Source: a virus (taxonomy: Duplodnaviria > Heunggongvirae > Uroviricota > Caudoviricetes). From it: a stretch of 39,485 bases of DNA. Shown one piece after another: positions 1-39,485 of the stretch. The position numbers and the translations under genes were made by a program. How positions within the stretch are numbered: the stretch's first letter is position 1; the number at the start of each line of letters is the position of its first letter. The stretch lies in IMG/VR virus record IMGVR_UViG_2534682294_000013; one strand, 5' to 3'. The notes beneath the pieces were generated by a model that saw only the letters and a program-made list of their open reading frames with translations, did not search any database and was not told where the DNA came from.

Positions 1-511
1 CAATTCCATTTGGTACAATCTCAATATCTGCATTTGCTAAATAAGATTGGTAATACTTTTTCAAGTATAAACTAGGCACTATCATTTTAACATTTTGCTC
101 AAGCAATTTTGGTTCAAATGCATTATGCATATGTATAACCACTCTTGCCTGAGGAGCTCGCTTACGAATTTGAGTGTATAGCTTCATGCTATTATGAACT
201 ACAATAACACTTTCTTTCGTTATAGGAAAATCATGTGCAATATTCAATATTCTCTGTGAATATGGAAGAGGATCAAGTCTTGTCCATTTTTGAAATAACC
301 GCTTATATATGCGACTGAATCCAACCCTATGAATACTACAATTATCATTAACAAAGGTGTAATTTGAGTATCCTGGATTTTTGATACAAACAATACGATT
401 TGGAAAATTGGTACGCTGAGCAACCTGATACATCCACGTTTCAACAGCAGCCGCTCCGCGAGGAGGAATTGAAAAAATAGGAGTAACCGTAAATATTATT
501 TTATCAACCAT
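1..511 (-). CDS. LPS core glycosyltransferase, N-terminal ~170 codons only (3' end beyond window start)
   Basis: Own minus-strand translation from ATG at 509-511: MVDKIIFTVTPIFSIPPRGAAAVETWMYQVAQRTNFPNRIV..., open to position 1. Directly downstream of the second GT8 gene in the waa operon, the position of waaD in R3-type loci (synteny only). Confidence 0.5.
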   Translation of the reverse strand, partial: MVDKIIFTVTPIFSIPPRGAAAVETWMYQVAQRTNFPNRIVCIKNPGYSNYTFVNDNCSIHRVGFSRIYKRLFQKWTRLDPLPYSQRILNIAHDFPITKESVIVVHNSMKLYTQIRKRAPQARVVIHMHNAFEPKLLEQNVKMIVPSLYLKKYYQSYLANADIEIVPNGI

Positions 512-519
512 CTCGTATA

Positions 520-1533
520 TTAACCTTTCATAACATTATATTTAATTGCTGTAAAAACACCATCGAGAAATTTTTTCTGGTAAAGCAAGTGTTTATATTT
601 TTCTTTGTACTCATGTTTTTTAACAGCTTTTTTATAAGGTATATTTCTCCATGGTGATATATTATAAATATTACGAAAATAATCTGCAGAGGCGTAGTTC
701 GCCCAATCATGCCATGGCTTAGTTATACCAGTATAATGTATGAAGACAGTGTCATCATTAATAAACCGGGTGTAATATTCACTATTTTTTTCTTCAAATT
801 CTGACTTTATAGTATAAATACAATTATATTTTCTCGGTAATATTTTAGCATGATGTAGAAACATTAAGTTTAAAATATCTTGATCCGGGTACTTTAATTT
901 TTTTATAATTGACTCATCTGATAATAGATCAAAGAATTTTTCCGTTAGTCTTTGTTTTAACCATTCCCGTAAATTAATATACATTACACCAGAGTTAAAA
1001 TAGCTACCGTTAAAATCCTCATTACACAAACGCTCAGCGCTTTTACTTTGCATAGCATCTACATCAATTACCACTGCCCCATATTCATCTTTAAACTCTA
1101 ATGCTATTAACTCGTTCAATGAACCCTTACAGACGATATCAGCATCAAGATATAATAATGAATCCAATCGCGCAGAAAAATAATCAAATGAAAGCAAACG
1201 ATAATAAATAGATACTGGCCAGATATTTGATTGAGGTAGCGCCTTCAATGGCTCAGAATCAATATGATATAATTTAATTACTGTTTGATACTTCGTTGCT
1301 AATTGTGATAATAATTCAATATACTCTTTGTCTAAGTAATCAGCGATTATGTGAAAGGTAAATTTGTTTTGTTTATTATTTTCAAGAATTGAAGCAATTG
1401 AAATCGCAGCCCCAACCTGGTAGTTCTCATCAATACCCCATGAGACATTAAACGTTTCCCGTTCATCAAGTTTAACGGGGCGCTTGTCCAGTTCAATTAT
1501 ATCTTTAAATTGAGTAAGATGTTTAAAATCCAA
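520..1533 (-). CDS. waaJ: LPS outer-core glycosyltransferase, GT8 family (second GT8 of operon)
   Basis: 337-aa ORF with GT8-like sequence including DxD (YLDADIVC); located after waaY as in R3-type core loci. Symbol assigned by synteny, not verified. Confidence 0.55.
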   Translation of the reverse strand: MDFKHLTQFKDIIELDKRPVKLDERETFNVSWGIDENYQVGAAISIASILENNKQNKFTFHIIADYLDKEYIELLSQLATKYQTVIKLYHIDSEPLKALPQSNIWPVSIYYRLLSFDYFSARLDSLLYLDADIVCKGSLNELIALEFKDEYGAVVIDVDAMQSKSAERLCNEDFNGSYFNSGVMYINLREWLKQRLTEKFFDLLSDESIIKKLKYPDQDILNLMFLHHAKILPRKYNCIYTIKSEFEEKNSEYYTRFINDDTVFIHYTGITKPWHDWANYASADYFRNIYNISPWRNIPYKKAVKKHEYKEKYKHLLYQKKFLDGVFTAIKYNVMKG

Positions 1534-1557
1534 TTTAATTACCCTTCATTATAATCA

Positions 1558-2265
1558 TTATTTGCTCTTCAATCCTAGTTTGACTTTTACATCCCTGATT
1601 ACTTTTTTAATTTTCTTTTTGAATATAAGATATGTATAGCCAAAGTCTTTCAATTCATTTTTTATATTATAGTGCCGTTCAAGATCAATGCGATCTTTTG
1701 CTTTTAAAACAGCGGTTGTTTTTTTACCTGAAAGGTCAATTAGTCTTAAACCTTTTTCGGATACTATAAAATTTCCCTTATGAGGATCGCCAGACACCAT
1801 TCCATGCTGATGCAACTCTTTTATCGATTCTGATAATTGATCCTTCAGATCTTCAGAAATTTCCAAATACTCATTTAACCCGACACCTTCAATATACTCA
1901 ATGAGCATAATATAATAATGAGCGAAATTTAATGTTTTACGTTCAGCTAGCAAAAAATAGTCATTAATTGATTGGATGCCTTCACCACGTACCCGATCGG
2001 TTTGATAAATTAAATTTTCATAATAATCTTTTTTTATGCAAGATTTTAAGAAACGTTCGGTCATTTTATGCTTTGGCGCATAAACTTTAAGTACAAGAGG
2101 TCCACGAGCAGTGTCAATAAGAATGACTTTAGTATCATCAATAGAACGAAAAACTTTTAATGTTTTAACCCTGCAAGTTAAAAAGTCATTTAGAACTTGC
2201 TCATAAAAGGGATCATTATCTTTTATGAAAACTTTCACCCCATTTATCGTTTTATTATATATCAT
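1558..2265 (-). CDS. waaY: LPS core heptose kinase WaaY
   Basis: 235-aa ORF, kinase-like (HQHGMVSGDPHKGNF, IDLSGK), right size and operon position for WaaY. Confidence 0.8.
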   Translation of the reverse strand: MIYNKTINGVKVFIKDNDPFYEQVLNDFLTCRVKTLKVFRSIDDTKVILIDTARGPLVLKVYAPKHKMTERFLKSCIKKDYYENLIYQTDRVRGEGIQSINDYFLLAERKTLNFAHYYIMLIEYIEGVGLNEYLEISEDLKDQLSESIKELHQHGMVSGDPHKGNFIVSEKGLRLIDLSGKKTTAVLKAKDRIDLERHYNIKNELKDFGYTYLIFKKKIKKVIRDVKVKLGLKSK

Positions 2266-2290
2266 AATGAATTATTTTAACCTTAAATCT

Positions 2291-3298
2291 TTAGAAGCAT
2301 TTTTCTTTATAATACTTTAAATAATTAAAAATGCCTGCCATATAATGCTTTTGTTTAAATTTATGTTTTGCACAATACCGATACTGATTGCTATTTACAG
2401 GTTTAAGTAAATCTTCTTTACTCCACGGAGAAGCTGCTTTGGCGATCAAAAAACTACGTGACACCGGATAGTCAGCCCACTCATGCCAAGGTTTTGTAGG
2501 TCCCACATAGTGTATAAACACGGTGTCATCATTGACTGGATTATCAACTTTGTCTTTTAATTCATAGTTAATACTATATCGGGTATTATATTTCTCCGAA
2601 ATAAACTTCACTTTACCATTCAATAATACATTCAGTACATCTTGATCAAGGTGGGTGATTTTACTTACCCAATCTGGGTCACGCAACATTTCAATAGCTT
2701 TTGACGAAATGTTATTTAGATTCCACTCATCAATATTTATCAGTAAAAAACCAGCATTGAAATATCCAGAAGCTAACTGTGGTGTAGTTAATACCGAGGC
2801 TCGATTTTGCCACCATTCAACATCTCTTTCAGCTACAACTGCGGCAATTTCATTAGTAGAAAATTGATAATCTAAGAGTTCTTTAATACTACCCTTGCAA
2901 GCAATATCTGCATCAAGATATAGTATTTTTTCATGTTTATGATAGAAATAATCTGCAATTATAAATCGAAAATATGTTGCGTAAGTCCAGTTTTTCGTGC
3001 TTGGTAATGACTTCAGCTTATCACAATTGATAACATAAATATTAATTCTTGAATTATATTGTTTTGCTAAATCAGAAAAATATAATTTGTCTTTATCACT
3101 GATATAATCTGTGAAAACATGAAATTCACAAGAGATTTCTCTATTGTTTAATAGAATAGATGCGATGGCTACACCACATCCAAAAAGAAAATTTCTGTCA
3201 ATACCAAATGCTATATCAAGAGTATTTTTAGATCTTATATTTTGATAATGAAAATTATACTCAAAAAGGATGATGTCACTATCATTGAGTTGAGACAT
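2291..3298 (-). CDS. waaI: LPS outer-core glycosyltransferase, GT8 family (first GT8, directly after waaP)
   Basis: 335-aa ORF, paralogous to the 520-1533 product (YLDADIACKG DxD motif). The single GT8 between waaP and waaY fits R3-type waaI rather than the K-12 waaS-waaB-waaO arrangement. Symbol by synteny. Confidence 0.5.
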   Translation of the reverse strand: MSQLNDSDIILFEYNFHYQNIRSKNTLDIAFGIDRNFLFGCGVAIASILLNNREISCEFHVFTDYISDKDKLYFSDLAKQYNSRINIYVINCDKLKSLPSTKNWTYATYFRFIIADYFYHKHEKILYLDADIACKGSIKELLDYQFSTNEIAAVVAERDVEWWQNRASVLTTPQLASGYFNAGFLLINIDEWNLNNISSKAIEMLRDPDWVSKITHLDQDVLNVLLNGKVKFISEKYNTRYSINYELKDKVDNPVNDDTVFIHYVGPTKPWHEWADYPVSRSFLIAKAASPWSKEDLLKPVNSNQYRYCAKHKFKQKHYMAGIFNYLKYYKEKCF

Positions 3299-3340
3299 AT
3301 TTATTCTGTATCCAAAATTTTGGCAAAAATAAGTTACGGG

Positions 3341-4138
3341 TTACAACGATTTTCGAATCGTTCTTTCCCTGATTTTTGTGGCTTTTGCTTCTGCTTGCGA
3401 CAGCAGTCCTTGTTCCTGCTTGAGAATGTCTTTAAGCGGGGCGGCAAAATACACTTTCATAAACCGCCAGATATCCCGCTGAGTCAGGCCGATATTCATC
3501 GAAGAAAAATAAAGCCCAATAAGATCTTTATCCCGCCAACGACGTGGAACGCGCGTGCGAAGCTGCGCCCGGTGCAGGTCAATTACCGAAATTTTTAACT
3601 CCTCTTCCTTACCGGAAAAAGGCAAGTGCAGCAGGAAATGACAGATATAACAGTCACGGTGGTTAATGCCCGCAGCATGCATATCGTGCACCATCGTCGC
3701 GACACGCTTAATAAGCATACGCTTTACGCGAACATCTGGAGGGTTAGTCGCCCAGTCAGCACAGTAATCTTCAAGACTTATGGTTGGTGTCAGATCTTCG
3801 GTAATAATAAATGAAGTTCTGGTCAGCGGATTCATGCCTTTTTCGCCAAATGCCACCCCATACATAGTATCAACGCCGACATCCCGCAGTCGATGAATCG
3901 CATTCCATTCGCGGTCTGCGCCTAATACTGGCATCCGCAATGAGAGTAAATTTTTGATTATCTCTTTCAGGGTCGTGCCGCGATGCCATTTGAGAAAATA
4001 GCTTTTGCCCGCCATTTCAAATCGCAGAGTGCGGCGAGTTTCCAGTTCACGAAAAACCTCACCCTGCAAGGTTTTAACTTCCTCAAAAGGATCTTTACCG
4101 CGCCATAACGTGGCAAACGGCTCTTTAAGTTCAACCAT
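3341..4138 (-). CDS. waaP: LPS core heptose(I) kinase WaaP
   Basis: ORF track 3341-4147; start trimmed to the Met giving [14 protein letters not shown]... (265 aa), which matches WaaP as I remember it. Start at 4147 is also possible. Confidence 0.85.
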
Positions 4139-5255
4139 CCAGACCACCCGTTATGATATCCGCCGCTTTCTCTGGCAGACTGTATAAATCTTGTGTATCA
4201 GCATAATGTCGCGCATTTTCCGCCCAGGCCTGGCGCAATGAAGATTGCGTTAACGCTTTGCGTAAAATCTCATTCAATGTTTCCTGGCGGAATGGCTCAG
4301 CAATAGCCTCGCCGCAATTGGCGTCGACAATATAATGCGCATAGCCACAAACGGCTGTTGTTAGTACCGGTAATCCTGCAGTAATCGCTTCCAGTAGCAC
4401 AATTCCCGCTGCTTCCTGGTAGGCAGGATGCAGTAATAAATCCGCCGCCGCCATTAATTCCGAGACATCGTTGCGCCCCGAGAAGAAGTGAACATTACTG
4501 CGCACGCCGCGTTTTTCTGCCAGCGCCTCAAATTTTCGCGGTTTATCCTGTCCAACAACATATAGCAATGTGTTGTGGCGCAGCGAATCCGGTAACGAAG
4601 CAAGTGCTTCAATGGAACGATCGACACCTTTACGCGTGAAGTCTGAACCGACCTGCAACAATAAATATTGTTGTTCGGTTATTCCATTCTTCTTACGGAA
4701 GATTTCACGGCTATTAGCTGGCTGCTGGCTATATTTACGATCAGGATAAATCCCCGGTGGTAGAATATGAAAACGCTCCGCTTCAGTCTGATAATGTTTC
4801 TGGAAATCGGCGATTTGCTTATCTGTCAGCATCAGCAGCTGTGTCGGCTTGCCCTGTTCGAAGGTTGCCCGCTCAAAGGCGGCATAATGGCGATAACGTG
4901 ACGTCAGGTGATAGAAAAAGCCTTTTTCCTGCGCGACTTTCTCGGCATAACAAACATCAGCGGCATAATAAACGTCCAGCCCCGGCATTTTGTTGAATCC
5001 AACGACTTTATCGACGGGATGTTCGCGTAAATGTTTTTGCACCCAGGCAAAATACTCCGCATTGCGCCCGTGATTGGTATGCGATTTAACCGGCACTTTG
5101 ATCAGTTCAAATACATCAGGGCATTCGCCTTCCCACGACTGGGTATAAACCCGAACATGATGACCTCGGGCGGCGACTGTCTGAGCAATACGCATAAAAT
5201 CGCGCTGCAAACCGCCAAAGGGAAAATATTTATATAAACAAAAAGCAACGATCAT
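4131..5255 (-). CDS. waaG: LPS core glucosyltransferase I WaaG (GT4)
   Basis: 374-aa [27 protein letters not shown]...; matches WaaG in length and sequence as remembered. Confidence 0.9.
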
Positions 5256-35092: not shown

Positions 35093-35187
35093 GGAAGATC
35101 GTCGTCTCCGGTGAGGCGGCTGGACTTCAAATCCAGTTGGGGCCGCCAGCGGTCCCGGGCAGGTTCGACTCCTGTGATCTTCCGCCA
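35093..35187 (+). tRNA. selC: tRNA-Sec (selenocysteine, UCA anticodon)
   Basis: GGAAGATCGTCGTCTCCGGTGAGGCGGCTGGACTTCAAATCCAGTTGGGGCCGCCAGCGGTCCCGGGCAGGTTCGACTCCTGTGATCTTCCGCCA: 95 nt with long variable arm, ACTTCAAAT anticodon loop and encoded CCA; matches E. coli selC as remembered. Confidence 0.95.
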
Positions 35188-35349: not shown

Positions 35350-36537
35350 ATGGCTCTAACCGATATACAGATCAAACGTGCAAAACCACAAGACAAACCA
35401 TACACATTGAACGATGGACAAGGTCTGTCATTGCTTATCAATCCCGATGGCTCGAAAGGCTGGCGTTTCCGTTTCCGGTTTGCAGGGAAAGCGCGGTTAA
35501 TGTCATTTGGCAGCTACGATTTAGTAAGCCTCGCAGAAGCACGTGAGAAGCGTGATATCGCCCGTAAGCAGGTTGCTAATGGCATTGACCCGGTAGAGGA
35601 ACGCAAAGCTTTAAGACTCGCTCAAAAGCTATCAACAGAAAATTCTTTCGAAGCAATATGTCGAGAATGGTATACCAACAAAGCTGATCGCTGGACTGTA
35701 GCCTATCGAGAAGAAATCATTAGGACATTCGAGCAGGATGTCTTCCCGTTCATTGGTAAACGTCCTATCAGTGAAATCAAACCATTAGAACTGCTTGAAG
35801 TATTGCGACGAATAGAGAAACGAGGAGCACTAGAGAAGACCAGAAAAGTGCGCCAAAGATGCGGTGAGGTCTTTCGTTATGCAATCATAACTGGCCGAGC
35901 TGAATACAACCCAGCACCTGATTTAGCTATCGCTCTGGCCGTTCCTAAGCCAAAACACCACCCATTTTTATCTGTCGAAGAGTTGCCTTATTTTATTCGG
36001 GATTTGGAGGCATACTCCGGCAGCATAATCACCAAAAATGCAACTAAGATAGTTATGCTTACTGGTGTAAGAACGCAGGAGATGCGCTTTGCTACGTGGG
36101 AAGAGGTTGATTTGGATAAGGAGGTTTGGGAGATACCAGCGGAACGTATGAAAATGCGTAGGCCTCACATTGTTCCTTTATCTACTCAGGTAGTTGACCT
36201 TTTTAAACAGCTCAAACCAATTACCGGTCATTACCCTTACATCTTTATTGGCAGGAACAACCGTAGCAAACCGATCTCGAAAGAAAGTGTTTCACAAGTG
36301 ATTGAGTTACTTGGTTACAAAGGCCGTGCTACAGGTCATGGATTTAGACATACAATGTCAACAATATTACATGAACAAGGGTTTGACAGTGCCTGGATTG
36401 AGATGCAATTAGCACATGTTGATAAAAATTCTATTCGTGGAACATACAATCACGCACAATATTTAGAAAATAGACGCGCAATGCTTCAGTGGTATAGTAA
36501 CTTCATATTTAATAAAATTAGTGAAGACACACTTTGA
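35350..36537 (+). CDS. int: P4-family tyrosine integrase
   Basis: 395-aa ORF MALTDIQIKRAKPQDKPYTLNDGQGLSLLINPDGSKGWRFRFRFAGK... (typical P4-integrase N-terminus) with a C-terminal catalytic region (HGFRHT ... Y); 162 nt 3' of selC. Confidence 0.85.
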   Translation: MALTDIQIKRAKPQDKPYTLNDGQGLSLLINPDGSKGWRFRFRFAGKARLMSFGSYDLVSLAEAREKRDIARKQVANGIDPVEERKALRLAQKLSTENSFEAICREWYTNKADRWTVAYREEIIRTFEQDVFPFIGKRPISEIKPLELLEVLRRIEKRGALEKTRKVRQRCGEVFRYAIITGRAEYNPAPDLAIALAVPKPKHHPFLSVEELPYFIRDLEAYSGSIITKNATKIVMLTGVRTQEMRFATWEEVDLDKEVWEIPAERMKMRRPHIVPLSTQVVDLFKQLKPITGHYPYIFIGRNNRSKPISKESVSQVIELLGYKGRATGHGFRHTMSTILHEQGFDSAWIEMQLAHVDKNSIRGTYNHAQYLENRRAMLQWYSNFIFNKISEDTL

Positions 36538-36547
36538 TTTATAAATA

Positions 36548-36575
36548 AAAAGAGCCTCTTCCGAAGCTCTTTTTT
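36548..36575. terminator. bidirectional intrinsic terminator between convergent int and the cargo operon
   Basis: aaaagagc-ctcttccgaa-gctctttt: 8-bp stem flanked by an A-run 5' and a T-run 3', so it reads as hairpin plus U-run on both strands; 10 nt after the int stop and 7 nt after the small-ORF stop. Confidence 0.45.
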
Positions 36576-36581
36576 AATTGT

Positions 36582-36755
36582 TTATTTATTGTTCTTCAAT
36601 CTTTTATCTTCTTGTAAAACAAGATTATTTAACACTTTAATTGACTTGGAGGATAAATCATCTCCTCCTAACATATTTTTTTTCCATTCCGGCCATTCAT
36701 TAATTATTTTTTTAGTTGCAACCACATGTTTAATAAAACCATTTTCGATAGACAT
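36582..36755 (-). CDS. small basic protein, 57 aa, translationally coupled to the upstream deaminase-fusion gene
   Basis: Own translation, not in the ORF track: MSIENGFIKHVVATKKIINEWPEWKKNMLGGDDLSSKSIKVLNNLVLQEDKRLKNNK. ATG at 36753-36755 is 1 nt after the upstream stop; AGGAG (plus strand ctcct, 36762-36766) sits 6 nt upstream of the ATG. 57 stop-free codons in ~30% GC DNA. Confidence 0.5.
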   Translation of the reverse strand: MSIENGFIKHVVATKKIINEWPEWKKNMLGGDDLSSKSIKVLNNLVLQEDKRLKNNK

Positions 36756-36756
36756 G

Positions 36757-38277
36757 TTAAACTCCTATGATCTTTGCGAATAAGTTAACAGAAATCTGCT
36801 CTCTTTCCAAGTAAGAAATAGGCAACAGTGATATTCTTAATGACGAATTAGACTCAGTCCATTTAACAACATTTCCCGACTTATCTTTTCTCTTAATTTT
36901 ATTACCACTTCCATTAACAATGGAAAATAGATTAAAATAGACTCGTGGACCTATTCCAATAAAAGGTTCGAAAAGCACCTTTCCTTGGTTTTTTTCATCA
37001 TTAGTTATTGATTCTGAATGAAATTCATAAGCCTTACTTTTTGGATATGGCTCTATGTAAACCACCCTCTTTATTCCCGAAGCTATAATATGCTTAGCGC
37101 AGTTGTGGCATGGGAAAGTAGTGCAATATATATAAGCATCTTGAGTACTAATATTTGTTCTAGCGCATGCTAAAATAGCTTCCATTTCAGCATGCACCAC
37201 ACGACCATATTCCGTAATATCTTGAATCAGGCTGTTATTGAGGATTCTCTCAAAATTATCACGAGATTTTCTAGGTATTTGATTGAGAATATCATGTATA
37301 ATTTCTCTTTTTTGTTTAGCATTCGAATCAAAACCTCTTACATAGTCCCTTCCTTCCGGATAGTCTTCATAAATTTCGTTCTCTGCATTAAAATATGGCC
37401 AGTATAAACCACCACCAGACTTAGGAACATCATTAGCACCAGTTGACATAATAGCGTAATTTTTTGCTAATACAGCTCCAACTTGTCTTGATAAATCAGC
37501 AGATCTCAAAGCTGAAGAAAAGGCCATATACATTGCATATTCATCAAATGTTGGCGTAATAAAAGGATTACCGAATAGCAAATCAAAAACTCTTTTTATA
37601 TCATTATTAAGTTTATCATCTCGGCCATCTTGGTTTAAAAAGAAATCAGCCAAATGAAATGTATCTCTGGTATGCTGCCCATGCCCAGACTCTTCATCTT
37701 CATCTCTAGCAATCAATAACGCTGCTTTATCTTCTGGAATTCCTTTATTACGAATTAAATTATCTAACCTGCGACTCTCATCAGAAAAAATACCAAACAA
37801 TAAAAATCCCGAGCCATATACTTCTCTTAATTTATACACCTCTTCTGGATGCTTTATTGAATTTATAACATATGCAATTCCTTTTTTATTTATTTGTAAA
37901 CGTGCATGCTTTGCCCTAATCTCATTAATTTTAGCTATTGCTCCAAGAGCCAATATATAATTACATTCACTATCCTCCCTCAGTTTATTTCCCTTAGTCA
38001 TTAAGCCATCAATTCTTTGGTAATTATCTGTATAATCTCCATTACCTAAGAGCTCAGCTATCACATCAGATGAAATCCGAACTTCAGAACATTCAAATTT
38101 ATATAAGGATAATCTATCTCTTATTTTTTTTGTAATTGCTTCTAGGTCTGTGCCAACGGAAGAAACTAACCCTATTACCATTTCTGCTAAAGGTCCTGTG
38201 GATTGCTTATCCTCCCCTGAGTTTTTTAAAAGCTGAGGTGCTTCTTTATTCAATTCTGTTATCTTTGTAATTTTCAT
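36757..38277 (-). CDS. two-domain protein: unassigned N-terminal domain fused to a cytidine/dCMP-deaminase-like zinc-binding domain; candidate anti-phage deaminase
   Basis: 506-aa ORF. C-terminal half has the CDA-fold signature: FDEYAMYMAFSSALRSADLSRQVGAVLAKNYAIMSTGAND (aa 244-283), HAEMEAI (H362, E364) and PCHNC (C390, C393). N-terminal ~230 aa has a Gly-rich segment GLVSSVGTD but no canonical Walker A. AT-rich; lies between int and cos/psu. Confidence 0.85.
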   Translation of the reverse strand: MKITKITELNKEAPQLLKNSGEDKQSTGPLAEMVIGLVSSVGTDLEAITKKIRDRLSLYKFECSEVRISSDVIAELLGNGDYTDNYQRIDGLMTKGNKLREDSECNYILALGAIAKINEIRAKHARLQINKKGIAYVINSIKHPEEVYKLREVYGSGFLLFGIFSDESRRLDNLIRNKGIPEDKAALLIARDEDEESGHGQHTRDTFHLADFFLNQDGRDDKLNNDIKRVFDLLFGNPFITPTFDEYAMYMAFSSALRSADLSRQVGAVLAKNYAIMSTGANDVPKSGGGLYWPYFNAENEIYEDYPEGRDYVRGFDSNAKQKREIIHDILNQIPRKSRDNFERILNNSLIQDITEYGRVVHAEMEAILACARTNISTQDAYIYCTTFPCHNCAKHIIASGIKRVVYIEPYPKSKAYEFHSESITNDEKNQGKVLFEPFIGIGPRVYFNLFSIVNGSGNKIKRKDKSGNVVKWTESNSSLRISLLPISYLEREQISVNLFAKIIGV

Positions 38278-38475
38278 ATGAAGTCATTCATCCAGTGAAG
38301 ATACAAAACATTTTTATAAATAATTCTTAGCATGTTTTCTATGTTTTCATTAAATTTTTTGAATTACCTCATGTTTTACATTTAAGCAACACAAGGTAAA
38401 CAACTGTTATATAAGAAAATTGAAAGCATAATGAATGATGTAGTTGGCTGTCACGTCTTCCCACTTCGTAGGGCG

Positions 38476-38490
38476 GATTCAGGCTGAATC
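38476..38490. repeat. 15-bp perfect palindrome in the cargo-operon upstream region
   Basis: gattcag-g-ctgaatc: 7-bp inverted arms around one central nucleotide, ~200 nt upstream of the deaminase-fusion start codon. Confidence 0.4.
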
Positions 38491-38734
38491 ATAGATAGTT
38501 TTAGACCTCTTATAGGACCGAATGTATAAGATGAAGGTATTAGAGGAGCTGAGCGCCTTCAAAACCGCCACTCAGTATCTAAACCGGGCAATACTTTCTC
38601 GCCCCTAACTTAGCCACTCATGGGCTCATCACGCCATCAAACATTACTGCACGATCACTAATACTCGTTCGAAACGGCACAGTACTACGGTACACCAAGT
38701 CCCGCAAAAATAAATACATTACCGCTGGCGCGCA

Positions 38735-38753
38735 GTGCTTTCCCCGCCTCGCC
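38735..38753. other. P2/P4-type cos site (19-nt cohesive-end sequence)
   Basis: gtgctttccccgcctcgcc is the exact reverse complement of GGCGAGGCGGGGAAAGCAC, the P2/P4 cohesive end as I remember it; located just 3' of psu as in P4. Confidence 0.7.
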
Positions 38754-38856
38754 CGCCCGCTTTGCGGGGCGGTTTTAATGCAGTTTCACTGACACGCTCA
38801 GGCCGCGCCGGGAATGGCGCGGTCTGCAGAAAATGAGGCAGGAAAACGCATGCAAA

Positions 38857-38887
38857 GCCATGCACCTTATCGATGCATGGCTTTTTT
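38857..38887 (+). terminator. intrinsic terminator (strongest in + orientation) 30 nt beyond the psu stop
   Basis: gccatgca-ccttatcga-tgcatggc-tttttt: 8-bp stem plus T6 on the plus strand, preceded by AAA so it may act in both directions. Confidence 0.5.
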
Positions 38888-38917
38888 CAGTAAAAACGGG
38901 CGGATTTTCGGGGAGTT

Positions 38918-39485
38918 TTACACAGACTGATGTGATGCCAGTTGCGCACTTTTACGCGAAAAAATCATGTTCTGCGCAGGGGTGAATTTTTCACGGCTGT
39001 CATCCACCGAAGCCGCGTCAGGCCTGAATCCGATGGTCGTTAAAATGTCGCTATCCTGTGCGGAATAATTAATTTTTTCCCCCTTCGCAAGCCAGGACAG
39101 GAGGGCTTCACGCAGGGCATCTGTGGCACGCTGTATGGCACAGTTTCGGGCAATGGCCGTCAGCTCACTGTAACCCATCAGCTCCGGTGCCAGTGCGGCC
39201 GCCAGTACTGTGCCGTGCTGCTGCATAAAATCATTCAGCCGGTCGCGGATGCTGATGTGCTGAACGGCTTCATGCGAACGAATATAACGACCGGCGGCCT
39301 GATTCACCTGCCATTTTCTGACTTCGATAATATTGCGTAATTCGTCCAGGCGGCTGACGTTTCTGCCTTCTCCTGACAGAAGCCGCAGATATTCCTGTTC
39401 GGCCGCTGCCAGCTCATTTTTGCGTTGCAGCCATGCTGCTTTGTTATTCTGACAGGTGTCAAAGGCCTGCTGTAAGGCTGTGCTT
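38918..39485 (-). CDS. psu: P4 Psu-like polarity-suppression / capsid decoration protein (5' end ~5 nt beyond window)
   Basis: The frame of track ORF 38918-39307 stays open to the window edge. Own translation from the edge: STALQQAFDTCQNNKAAWLQRKNELAAAEQEYLRLLSGEGRNVSRLDELRNIIEVRKWQVNQAAGRYIRSHEAV...; resembles the P4 Psu N-terminus as remembered, and the implied length (~190 aa) fits. Confidence 0.65.
   Translation of the reverse strand, partial: STALQQAFDTCQNNKAAWLQRKNELAAAEQEYLRLLSGEGRNVSRLDELRNIIEVRKWQVNQAAGRYIRSHEAVQHISIRDRLNDFMQQHGTVLAAALAPELMGYSELTAIARNCAIQRATDALREALLSWLAKGEKINYSAQDSDILTTIGFRPDAASVDDSREKFTPAQNMIFSRKSAQLASHQSV

Follow-up and report, generated by a model that had tools for sequence, protein, structure and literature searches.

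A putative anti-phage dCTP deaminase of the AvcD/DcdV family in a P4-like satellite, whose long spacer and lysine-less P-loop are family-wide features

The stretch of DNA analysed here (39,485 nt in full, referred to below as the window) encodes a 506-aa protein which, judged from its sequence, is very probably a standard member of the AvcD/DcdV family, encoded by a cargo gene that sits in the defence slot of a P4-like satellite. A long spacer before the HAE zinc ligand and a glycine-rich loop without lysine, described in a first-pass annotation as a non-canonical architecture, are defining features of the whole family. Profile matches and the conservation of both features among distant homologues point away from an exceptional protein and towards the known anti-phage dCTP deaminases. 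The gene is already correctly annotated as a known defence family, and its architecture is the established norm of that family. The coding sequence lies as follows.

36757..38277 (-), coding sequence of the 506-aa anti-phage dCTP deaminase (AvcD/DcdV family); ORF list, NF041025, PADLOC, RefSeq
36757-36759 (-), stop codon of the deaminase gene; ORF list

The evidence for family membership comprises the NF041025 match, the PADLOC and phrog_9198 matches, the homologue set, the RefSeq annotation and the P4 satellite context. The NCBIfam equivalog NF041025, 'anti-phage dCTP deaminase', matches at 470.7 bits (curated cut-off 400 bits), with aa 32-453 aligned to positions 1-432 of the 437 in the profile. 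In profile searches with the deaminase protein, the PADLOC model dCTPase (PDLC02373) matched with an E value of 1.2e-168, and phrog_9198 matches over the full length. RefSeq names the protein 'anti-phage dCTP deaminase' (WP_000704989.1, E. coli O157:H7; DNA identity 100%). Homologues number 1725 representatives of 50%-identity clusters at E<=1e-30, nearly all of which align from aa ~31 to ~500; identity to many family members is about 50-55%, and the closest cluster representative is 90% identical. The family as a whole amounts to about 8900 representative hits, and its members of 580-610 aa are extended at the N-terminus by about 100 aa. In the present protein a P-loop-kinase-like domain at the N-terminus is fused to a zinc cytidine/dCMP deaminase domain at the C-terminus, and it combines the family profile match with intact zinc motifs, a divergent allosteric motif followed by a long spacer, and a location on a mobile element. 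Deamination of dCTP and dCMP, depletion of dC nucleotides on infection and protection against phage are known for homologues and are predicted here by analogy.

The same comparisons bear on whether the flagged features are merely local oddities, without function, of a degenerate or decaying gene copy. Apart from the mismatch to textbook motifs nothing favours this reading, which has a negligible probability: the ORF is intact and 100% identical across seven complete O157:H7 genomes, and each flagged feature is retained in hundreds of distant homologues. The family alignments rule it out. Of the 5426 complete E. coli genomes, no more than 12 carry the gene.

The P4-like satellite sits at tRNA-Sec, and the deaminase operon fills its variable slot, flanked by psu and int. 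The neighbours are as follows.

35093-35187, tRNA-Sec, adjoining the integrase gene
35350..36537 (+), P4-type tyrosine integrase; ORF list, RefSeq
38918..39307 (-), 129-aa ORF, the 3' part of the P4 polarity suppression gene (psu); ORF list, RefSeq

In RefSeq, psu is a longer gene of 573 nt that shares its stop codon with the 129-aa ORF, and P4 sequences downstream of psu are common to loci L003-L005. Elsewhere in the window, the low-GC stretch at positions 1-4000 is an ordinary waa LPS-core cluster.

The C-terminal part of the protein comprises the deaminase domain with its zinc site and spacer, and a conserved tail.

36919..37572 (-), aa 236-453, zinc-dependent dCMP-deaminase-fold domain including the spacer
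37195..37431 (-), aa 283-361, spacer subdomain between G-A-N-D and H-A-E; family alignments, predicted structure
37186..37194 (-), H362-A-E364, zinc ligand and catalytic glutamate; motif position
37099..37113 (-), P389-C390-H-N-C393, zinc-binding cysteines; motif position
36760..36918 (-), aa 454-506, conserved C-terminal tail with a final helix at 486-504; profiles, predicted structure

The motifs first quoted for this ORF are all present (GLVSSVGTD at aa 36-44, HAE at 362-364 and PCHNC at 389-393), and the zinc site is close to invariant: H362 and E364 are each found in 142 of 143 representatives, and C390 and C393 each in 141 of 143. The first deaminase block (T279-G-A-N282-D) is indeed far from the zinc histidine, 79 residues lying between N282 and H362. 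The string originally given for it, KSGGG...GRVV, spans 76 residues from aa 286 and not from aa 284, residues 284-285 being V-P. Compared with most stand-alone dCMP deaminases, the spacer is a genuine insertion. The Pfam PF00383 match takes in aa 244-408, where 165 residues face 99 profile positions, leaving about 66 residues extra. The statement that stand-alone enzymes have a much shorter spacer is borne out by the dCMP deaminase of S. mutans (2hvv; 25 residues) and by human DCTD (2w4l; 29 residues), but not by phage T4 Cd (1vq2), in which the same gap, counted like the others from alignments, is 63 residues long.

Within its own family the spacer is of ordinary length. An alignment showing this had been named beforehand as the result that would count against an unusual insertion, and it is the result obtained, because the spacer has the modal family length and carries invariant residues: 79 residues is the family mode, and among 142 diverse representatives the median is 81, the 5th-95th percentile range 73-115 and the minimum 66. 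In family alignments G289, G290, Y292, W293, D305, R310, D311, D317, N319, T355, E356 and R359 are invariant or nearly so. The predicted structure has a beta-hairpin (295-297 and 302-304) and helices at 311-314, 318-332, 336-347 and 350-353, with a pLDDT of about 86-94 in the whole-protein model, falling to about 66 at aa 351-360. The structural-neighbour search suggested for each domain brought nothing for the spacer: modelled alone (pLDDT 66) it had no significant neighbour in the PDB, the best Foldseek E value being 7.4. In PDB copies dated 2026 no solved structure matched the deaminase over its full length, by sequence or by fold, and full-text literature searches for structural work on the anti-phage dCTP deaminases gave none.

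The position of the allosteric motif, G[YW]N[AG] in regulated enzymes, is occupied here by G280-A-N-D283; across the family position 281 is A, C, T or S and position 283 is D or E. The V. cholerae enzyme DcdV has GCND at this site and is not inhibited by dTTP. The roles of the allosteric motif, and of loop 367-396 with K392 in human CDADC1, have been described (PMC12088426): in stand-alone dCMP deaminases the equivalent loop forms the allosteric site and is located where protomers meet, and in CDADC1 it provides a lysine to the alpha-phosphate of dCTP. By analogy, the spacer appears to take the place of the dCTP/dTTP allosteric-site and protomer-interface loop of stand-alone enzymes. There is close to an even chance that the invariant R310, R359, Y292 and W293 help to build an enlarged triphosphate pocket, a domain or subunit interface, or both; a dedicated infection sensor is less likely.

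It had also been proposed that the spacer is a regulatory or oligomerization element keeping the deaminase off until infection, for instance as an autoinhibitory lid or as the surface bound by an inhibitor. The place of the equivalent loop in stand-alone enzymes (PMC12088426) makes a role in assembly or regulation plausible, its conservation is strong, and the lower pLDDT (66) of the segment leading up to H362 (aa 351-360) would suit a mobile element. However, what keeps DcdV inactive is an sRNA whose gene lies 5' of that of the enzyme (bioRxiv 10.1101/2021.03.31.437871). The escape substitutions E123K, A126T, K201R, K511E and Q514R were placed by the same authors in the kinase-like and deaminase domains, and by their numbering K511E and Q514R, in a protein of 532 aa, are ~20 residues short of the C-terminus (10.1101/2021.03.31.437871). 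None of the five was reported in the spacer, in a screen that may not have been saturated. The invariant Arg, Asp, Tyr and Trp residues, moreover, resemble a ligand pocket more than a surface for a regulator peculiar to one species, and conservation of the sRNAs does not extend across species. An off-switch in the spacer is thus unsupported as first proposed, and a regulatory role of this kind is considered unlikely.

The C-terminal region had been underestimated: 113 residues, rather than ~60, follow C393. Roughly the last 50 (aa 454-506) lie outside the deaminase core and the NCBIfam profile, which ends at aa 453; the PADLOC match, by contrast, runs on to aa 501 and that of phrog_9198 to aa 502. 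Invariant residues in this tail are G458, R463, K464, G468, R481, Y489 and E493.

The N-terminal half of the protein is divided as follows.

38188..38277 (-), aa 1-30, unconserved N-terminal stretch, predicted to be disordered; pLDDT <50 for residues 1-27, family profiles begin at aa 31-32
37573..38187 (-), aa 31-235, nucleotide-kinase-like domain (P-loop kinase fold)
38146..38172 (-), aa 36-44, GLVSSVGTD, degenerate P-loop without lysine; motif position, predicted secondary structure

In a Pfam scan of the whole protein no family covers the N-terminal domain. It has the fold of a P-loop nucleotide (monophosphate) kinase, and the glycine-rich loop lies, in the predicted structure, between strand beta1 (31-39) and a helix at 45-58. 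The description of this loop as resembling Walker A without its lysine was accurate, as was that of the domain as kinase-like with a degenerate P-loop; the GxxxxGK[ST] signature with its catalytic lysine is missing. The family-wide pattern is G36-x-x-[GAS]-[AP]-V-G42-[T/V/A]-[DN]. G42 is present in all of 140 representatives and T43 in 83 of 143, and a lysine occurs within the loop in only five of 143 (absent in 138), never at the canonical Walker position, which seems to be taken by G42 or T43. Other conserved elements of the domain are an invariant K142, where the Arg of the kinase 'DGxxR' monophosphate-site motif would be, and a lid-like segment, R191-D192-x-x-E195 ... G200-Q201.

Both domains are essential in homologues (10.1101/2021.03.31.437871, 10.1101/2021.04.26.441389). 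The filamentation that DcdV induces is lost with S52K in Walker A and with D162A+Q163A in Walker B (10.1101/2021.03.31.437871), and in the E. coli AW1.7 enzyme the kinase-motif substitutions G29A and C30A abolish defence (bioRxiv 10.1101/2021.04.26.441389). The mutant tests initially proposed for this protein have in effect been performed on homologues. The 270 homologues retrieved included no V. cholerae-like sequence through which the published V. cholerae and V. parahaemolyticus mutations could be mapped. By spacing, S52 of DcdV probably corresponds to S39 or S40 here; D162 and Q163 most likely correspond to N139 and S140, since D and Q occur at those positions in some representatives.

These observations favour, with some confidence, a degenerate nucleotide-monophosphate-kinase-like module that binds a nucleotide, another phosphate-bearing ligand or an inhibitory RNA without transferring phosphate; given the kinase-like fold and the degenerate P-loop, nucleotide binding without canonical kinase chemistry is a reasonable expectation. 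The domain might instead be a working kinase of non-canonical type, which could, for instance, interconvert phosphorylation states of dC nucleotides to feed the deaminase by means of non-Walker residues such as K142. A phosphotransfer role was proposed by Hsueh et al. (10.1101/2021.03.31.437871), and such a role would fit the full nucleotide-kinase fold with its lid-like segment and the loss of activity in the motif mutants. It is nevertheless improbable: essentially the whole family lacks the Walker A lysine, the second Walker glycine is replaced by V, I, L or T, N139 stands where 3lw7 has its Walker B-type Asp, at a position that varies across the family (R, D, N or K), and the publications consulted report no kinase activity.

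For the system as a whole, published homologues suggest the following mode of action. In an uninfected cell the enzyme would be kept inactive; when a phage shuts off host transcription, a labile inhibitor would be lost; the zinc deaminase domain would then convert dCTP and dCMP to dUTP and dUMP, and this conversion would starve phage DNA synthesis. AvcID is a type III toxin-antitoxin system in which a non-coding RNA antitoxin (AvcI/DifV) lies immediately 5' of the deaminase gene and is co-transcribed with it. Here a non-coding gap of 640 nt (38278-38917) lies upstream of the gene. An E-value-based Rfam scan for an AvcI-like sRNA gave no match in this gap, and the lone hit was a chance snoRNA inside the coding sequence; AvcI sequences are unconserved between species, so that an antitoxin RNA may still be encoded there. 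An upstream region of 443 nt has a fold z-score of -1.41. Alignment of the upstream sequence with the four closest loci retains only about 100 nt of AT-rich promoter-proximal sequence, in the two nearest.

Immediately downstream of the deaminase gene are two further features on the same strand.

36582..36755 (-), 57-aa ORF with the motif W21-P-E-W24-K and AGGAG before its start; ORF list, RefSeq, sequence context
36541..36570 (-), intrinsic-terminator-like hairpin, AGAGCTTC-GGAA-GAGGCTCT, then TTTTTATTTAT; read from the sequence

The small ORF begins 1 nt past the deaminase stop and is present in RefSeq as WP_000021256.1, 'hypothetical protein'. At 53 of 81 homologous loci, from several phyla, a homologous small ORF likewise follows the deaminase gene (opposite-strand control, 1 of 81), and the WPxWK motif is invariant in the alignment. 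Conversely, in searches begun from the small protein, a deaminase lay immediately upstream in three of three cases. The protein has no family in Pfam, NCBIfam or PADLOC and a weak but consistent match to phrog_38465, whose function is unknown; no natural fusion of microprotein and deaminase was present among 270 homologues, and full-text literature searches brought up no small partner protein. The hairpin, which is absent from the pattern-scan list, follows the small ORF directly and probably marks the end of a two-gene operon, with the 57-aa ORF probably encoding a co-translated partner microprotein of the deaminase.

A tentative extension, held at rather less than even probability, is that in most lineages the system is a two-gene module, in which the coupled microprotein of ~50-75 aa (an amphipathic helix, then the invariant W-P-x-W-K) is a subunit or regulator of the enzyme. 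It could be a protein counterpart of, or an addition to, the AvcI RNA, or a sensor or activator. If the two-gene reading is true, the spacer, the lysine-less P-loop domain and the C-terminal tail would be docking surfaces for the microprotein or its ligand.

As first stated, the finding changes little, the family being known and the supposed anomalies its norm. The WPxWK gene, present at about two thirds of loci, could change both the definition of the system and how it is cloned, as catalogues list a single gene. [quoted passage not shown]

The closest known systems are AvcD/DcdV of Vibrio cholerae, V. parahaemolyticus, Proteus mirabilis and ETEC (Hsueh et al. 2022; 10.1101/2021.03.31.437871) and the dCTP deaminases of E. 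coli AW1.7 and U09 (Tal et al. 2022; 10.1101/2021.04.26.441389). Common to all are an N-terminal P-loop-kinase-like domain, a C-terminal zinc deaminase with HAE...PCxxC, a divergent G[AC]ND in place of the allosteric motif, above-cut-off matches to the same family HMMs and location in a mobile defence island. The present locus differs in the conserved 57-aa ORF that follows the deaminase, which is mentioned in neither preprint. The AW1.7 enzyme is 576 aa long and, judged from the published mutations C370/C401, seemingly has Cys as its first zinc ligand.

Among more distant relatives, the N-terminal domain shares 15% identity with Sulfolobus solfataricus SSO1041 (UPF0200/adenylate-kinase-related; 3lw7, 3h0k); the N-terminal parts of the two proteins, in which a P-loop would be expected, fail to align by sequence, and the loop of the deaminase family lacks the lysine. 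Stand-alone allosteric dCMP deaminases of the DCTD type are single-domain proteins of ~140-190 aa with G[YW]N[AG], whereas the protein described here has GAND, two domains in 506 aa and a 79-aa spacer against 25-63 residues. Human CDADC1, a (d)CTP deaminase with the DCTD fold (PMC12088426; 9hfq), carries a second, inactive deaminase domain in the place of the kinase-like domain and a loop of about 30 residues against 79 here, and belongs to vertebrate metabolism rather than to defence.

On sequence grounds, the 506-aa deaminase ORF is an ordinary member of a defence family that is already characterised, and it had been annotated as such. The NCBIfam equivalog NF041025 ('anti-phage dCTP deaminase') matches aa 32-453 on profile positions 1-432/437 with 470.7 bits (curated cut-off 400 bits), the PADLOC dCTPase model matches at 1.2e-168, and phrog_9198 matches along the full length. 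A word-indexed search retrieved 7859 relatives, many already named anti-phage dCTP deaminase; among 50%-identity representatives, searched exhaustively, 1725 matched at E<=1e-30, nearly all spanning aa ~31 to ~500. The DNA of the gene is 100% identical in E. coli O157:H7 genomes, including FRIK944, and its RefSeq entry is WP_000704989.1, anti-phage dCTP deaminase. Among 5426 complete E. coli genomes, just 12 carry the gene.

A P4-like satellite, integrated at tRNA-Sec (selC), carries the deaminase operon; the region has these features:

35093-35187, tRNA-Sec (selC), the satellite integration site
35350-36537, integrase of the P4-like satellite
36541-36570 (-), intrinsic-terminator-like hairpin, AGAGCTTC GGAA GAGGCTCT, then the T-run TTTTTATTTAT, right after the small ORF
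36582..36755 (-), 57-aa ORF starting 1 nt past the deaminase stop and preceded by AGGAG; 'hypothetical protein' in RefSeq
36757..38277 (-), anti-phage dCTP deaminase CDS, 506-aa ORF
38278-38720 (-), ~440 nt of non-coding DNA, not conserved with related loci, separating the deaminase start from the conserved P4 sequence that follows psu
38918-39307, psu of the P4-like satellite

The gene order is integrase, 57-aa ORF, deaminase, psu and an ogr/delta-like gene, and continues towards the primase. The deaminase occupies the slot for variable cargo that int and psu enclose, a known hotspot for defence genes in P4-like satellites. L003-L005, the homologous loci nearest to this one, have the P4 sequences downstream of psu in common with it, which places their copies of the gene in the same slot of related satellites. 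Elsewhere in the window, positions 1-4150 (-) are low in GC (31-40%) and encode two family-8 glycosyltransferases, WaaY and a WaaP-type LPS kinase; a mobile element was considered here and rejected, the gene content being that of an ordinary waa LPS-core cluster.

The first-pass annotation had described a non-canonical architecture, with a long insertion ahead of the H-A-E zinc ligand and a lysine-less glycine-rich loop. Both features are real, but both are hallmarks of the anti-phage dCTP deaminase family. Translation of the ORF places GLVSSVGTD (aa 36-44), H-A-E (362-364) and P-C-H-N-C (389-393) where they had been reported. The inserted string, given as beginning at aa 284, begins at aa 286 and is 76 residues long, aa 284-285 being V-P, and 113 residues, not about 60, follow C393 of the PCxxC motif. 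N282, which closes the first deaminase block (T-G-A-N-D), is separated from H362 by 79 residues. PF00383 (Pfam) covers aa 244-408 with just 99 profile positions, so the deaminase carries ~66 surplus residues.

This gap is of the same length in close homologues (mode 79, n=120), and in 142 diverse representatives, 39-53% identical, its median is 81 (5th-95th percentile 73-115, minimum 66). The spacer had been put forward as unusual; its length proves ordinary for the subfamily, and, judged from these alignments, a spacer of about 80 residues is the norm for anti-phage dCTP deaminases. The comparison with stand-alone dCMP deaminases holds for most but not all of them: counted on alignments, the gap is 25 residues in S. 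mutans (2hvv) and 29 in the human enzyme (2w4l), against 79 here, but T4 (1vq2) has 63. Few parts of the protein are as well conserved in family alignments as the spacer, where P285, G289, G290, Y292, W293, D305, R310, D311, D317, N319, T355, E356 and R359 are invariant or nearly so. A confident AlphaFold2 model from 104 sequences (pLDDT 87.8, pTM 0.85) folds it as a beta-hairpin and three or four helices; pLDDT here is ~86-94, dropping to 66 only at aa 351-360. Modelled alone (pLDDT 66), the spacer had no solved neighbour (best E 7.4).

In the same model the glycine-rich loop joins strand 31-39 to helix 45-58. Its family motif is [GA]36-L-V-[GAS]-[AP]-[VIL]-G42-[T/V/A/S]-[DN]; G42 is found in 140/140 representatives and T43 in just 83/143, while 5/143 have a lysine somewhere in the loop, in no case at the canonical position. 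If G36 is the first Walker glycine and T43 the Walker Ser/Thr, G42 would stand in the lysine's place. The profile of the N-domain (aa 31-235) matches the adenylate-kinase-related Sulfolobus solfataricus SSO1041 (3lw7/3h0k) by sequence (E = 2e-5), aligning I-I-N-S-L-K142-H-P-E-E-V on V-F-D-G-V-R-S-L-A-E-V and R-D192-x-D-E195...G200-Q201 on R-R-D-R-E-E-L-K-L-G. We take the I-I-N-S-L-K142 segment to correspond to 'DGxxR', the motif of the nucleotide-monophosphate site in adenylate-type kinases. On that reading the domain would keep monophosphate-site and lid features, with the ATP-site lysine lost. K142 and D192 are each conserved in 142/143 representatives, Q201 in 143/143 and R170 in 130/143.

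It was proposed earlier that the N-domain binds nucleotide but lacks canonical kinase chemistry. This is a reasonable reading, and not a new one: both founding papers mutated the motif and found it essential. Vibrio cholerae DcdV (= AvcD) combines a P-loop-kinase-like domain at the N-terminus with a dCMP deaminase at the C-terminus, acts on both dCMP and dCTP, and causes filamentation that is abolished by S52K (Walker A), D162A+Q163A (Walker B), E384A or C411A+C414A (Hsueh et al., 10.1101/2021.03.31.437871). [quoted passage not shown] The searches turned up no solved structure of the family: by sequence, the PDB matched dCMP deaminases only, for the C-domain, and the literature searches returned no cryo-EM study.

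The most interesting new item, outside the architecture first described, is the conserved microprotein encoded downstream, an amphipathic helix followed by an invariant W-P-x-W-K. The terminator-like hairpin directly after its ORF, which is absent from the consensus scan's list, suggests that deaminase and microprotein form one transcription unit. By tblastn and ORF extraction at 80 loci, each with a deaminase homologue and taken from different species, a 50-76-aa same-strand ORF was found overlapping or abutting the deaminase stop, mostly at an offset of -29 to +17, with the core F-x-x-H-L-x-x-x-x-x-x-V-x-x-W-P-x-W-K. The motif lies directly downstream of the deaminase in 53/81 loci, and about four more have degenerate versions; it occurs in 1/81 on the opposite strand and 6/81 in a control segment further downstream. 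The observation covers the window, L002-L081 and L083-L088, and extends over several phyla, with Enterobacterales, Pseudomonas, Acinetobacter, Vibrio, Planctomycetota, Myxococcota, Paenibacillaceae and Oscillospiraceae among the taxa. Reverse look-ups from the small protein in Acinetobacter, Pantoea and Leminorella found a ~500-aa deaminase immediately upstream in 3/3. It belongs to no Pfam, NCBIfam or PADLOC family, matches phrog_38465 (function unknown) weakly but consistently, and has database relatives all named 'hypothetical protein'. A small partner ORF is mentioned neither in the two founding papers (10.1101/2021.03.31.437871, 10.1101/2021.04.26.441389) nor in full-text literature searches. 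The 57-aa ORF is probably a genuine, translationally coupled partner of the deaminase.

A second E. coli enzyme type has no WPxWK ORF downstream:

L082 (E. coli CV839-06) 2215-3984, 590-aa enzyme with an extra N-terminal domain

Its gene adjoins restriction and PD-(D/E)XK nuclease genes. The extra domain, ~100 aa with motifs like ...W...TG.I.FQG..., also occurs in many 580-610-aa Pseudomonas and metagenomic homologues.

DcdV is inhibited post-translationally by the sRNA DifV/AvcI, encoded 5' of the gene (10.1101/2021.03.31.437871), and later work describes activation via transcription shut-off and AvcI decay (PMC10511110). Across the 640 nt that separate psu from the deaminase start, Rfam gave no match, a single weak promoter-like site lies at 38454-38425, structure excess is not significant (z = -1.41), and conservation with the nearest loci is limited to ~100 nt. 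Since AvcI RNAs are not conserved in sequence (10.1101/2021.03.31.437871), sequence matching neither shows nor excludes an RNA antitoxin here; an AvcI-like RNA would be expected at 38278-38720. The sRNA-escape substitutions in DcdV are E123K, A126T, K201R, K511E and Q514R, the last two ~20 residues before the end of the 532-aa protein (10.1101/2021.03.31.437871). Because K511E and Q514R lie near the DcdV C-terminus, the tail is, by position only, a better candidate than the spacer for inhibitor contact. In our protein the deaminase core extends to ~aa 451 (strands 404-407 and 434-438; helices 416-419 and 444-451), and is followed by an extended conserved segment (G458, R463, K464, G468, W473, R481) and a helix at 486-504 (Y489, E493).

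The residual value of the architecture lies in the mechanistic role of the spacer and the degenerate kinase-like domain. The divergent allosteric motif, which reads GAND in our protein, directly precedes the spacer; in DcdV, GCND replaces G[Y/W]NG and dTTP does not inhibit (10.1101/2021.03.31.437871). That the spacer is simply needed for a triphosphate substrate is countered by PBCV-1 bi-DCD, which acts on dCTP without any insert. In regulated dCMP deaminases, the allosteric motif and the next loop build the dCTP/dTTP site at the protomer interface (PMC12088426). In CDADC1, the human DCTD-fold dCTP deaminase, the corresponding loop (367-396) rearranges so that K392 binds the dCTP alpha-phosphate (PMC12088426). 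By analogy with CDADC1 and the regulated dCMP deaminases, the invariant R359, three residues ahead of H362, together with R310 and Y292/W293, are candidates for contacts to the substrate phosphate or sugar, or for an interface.
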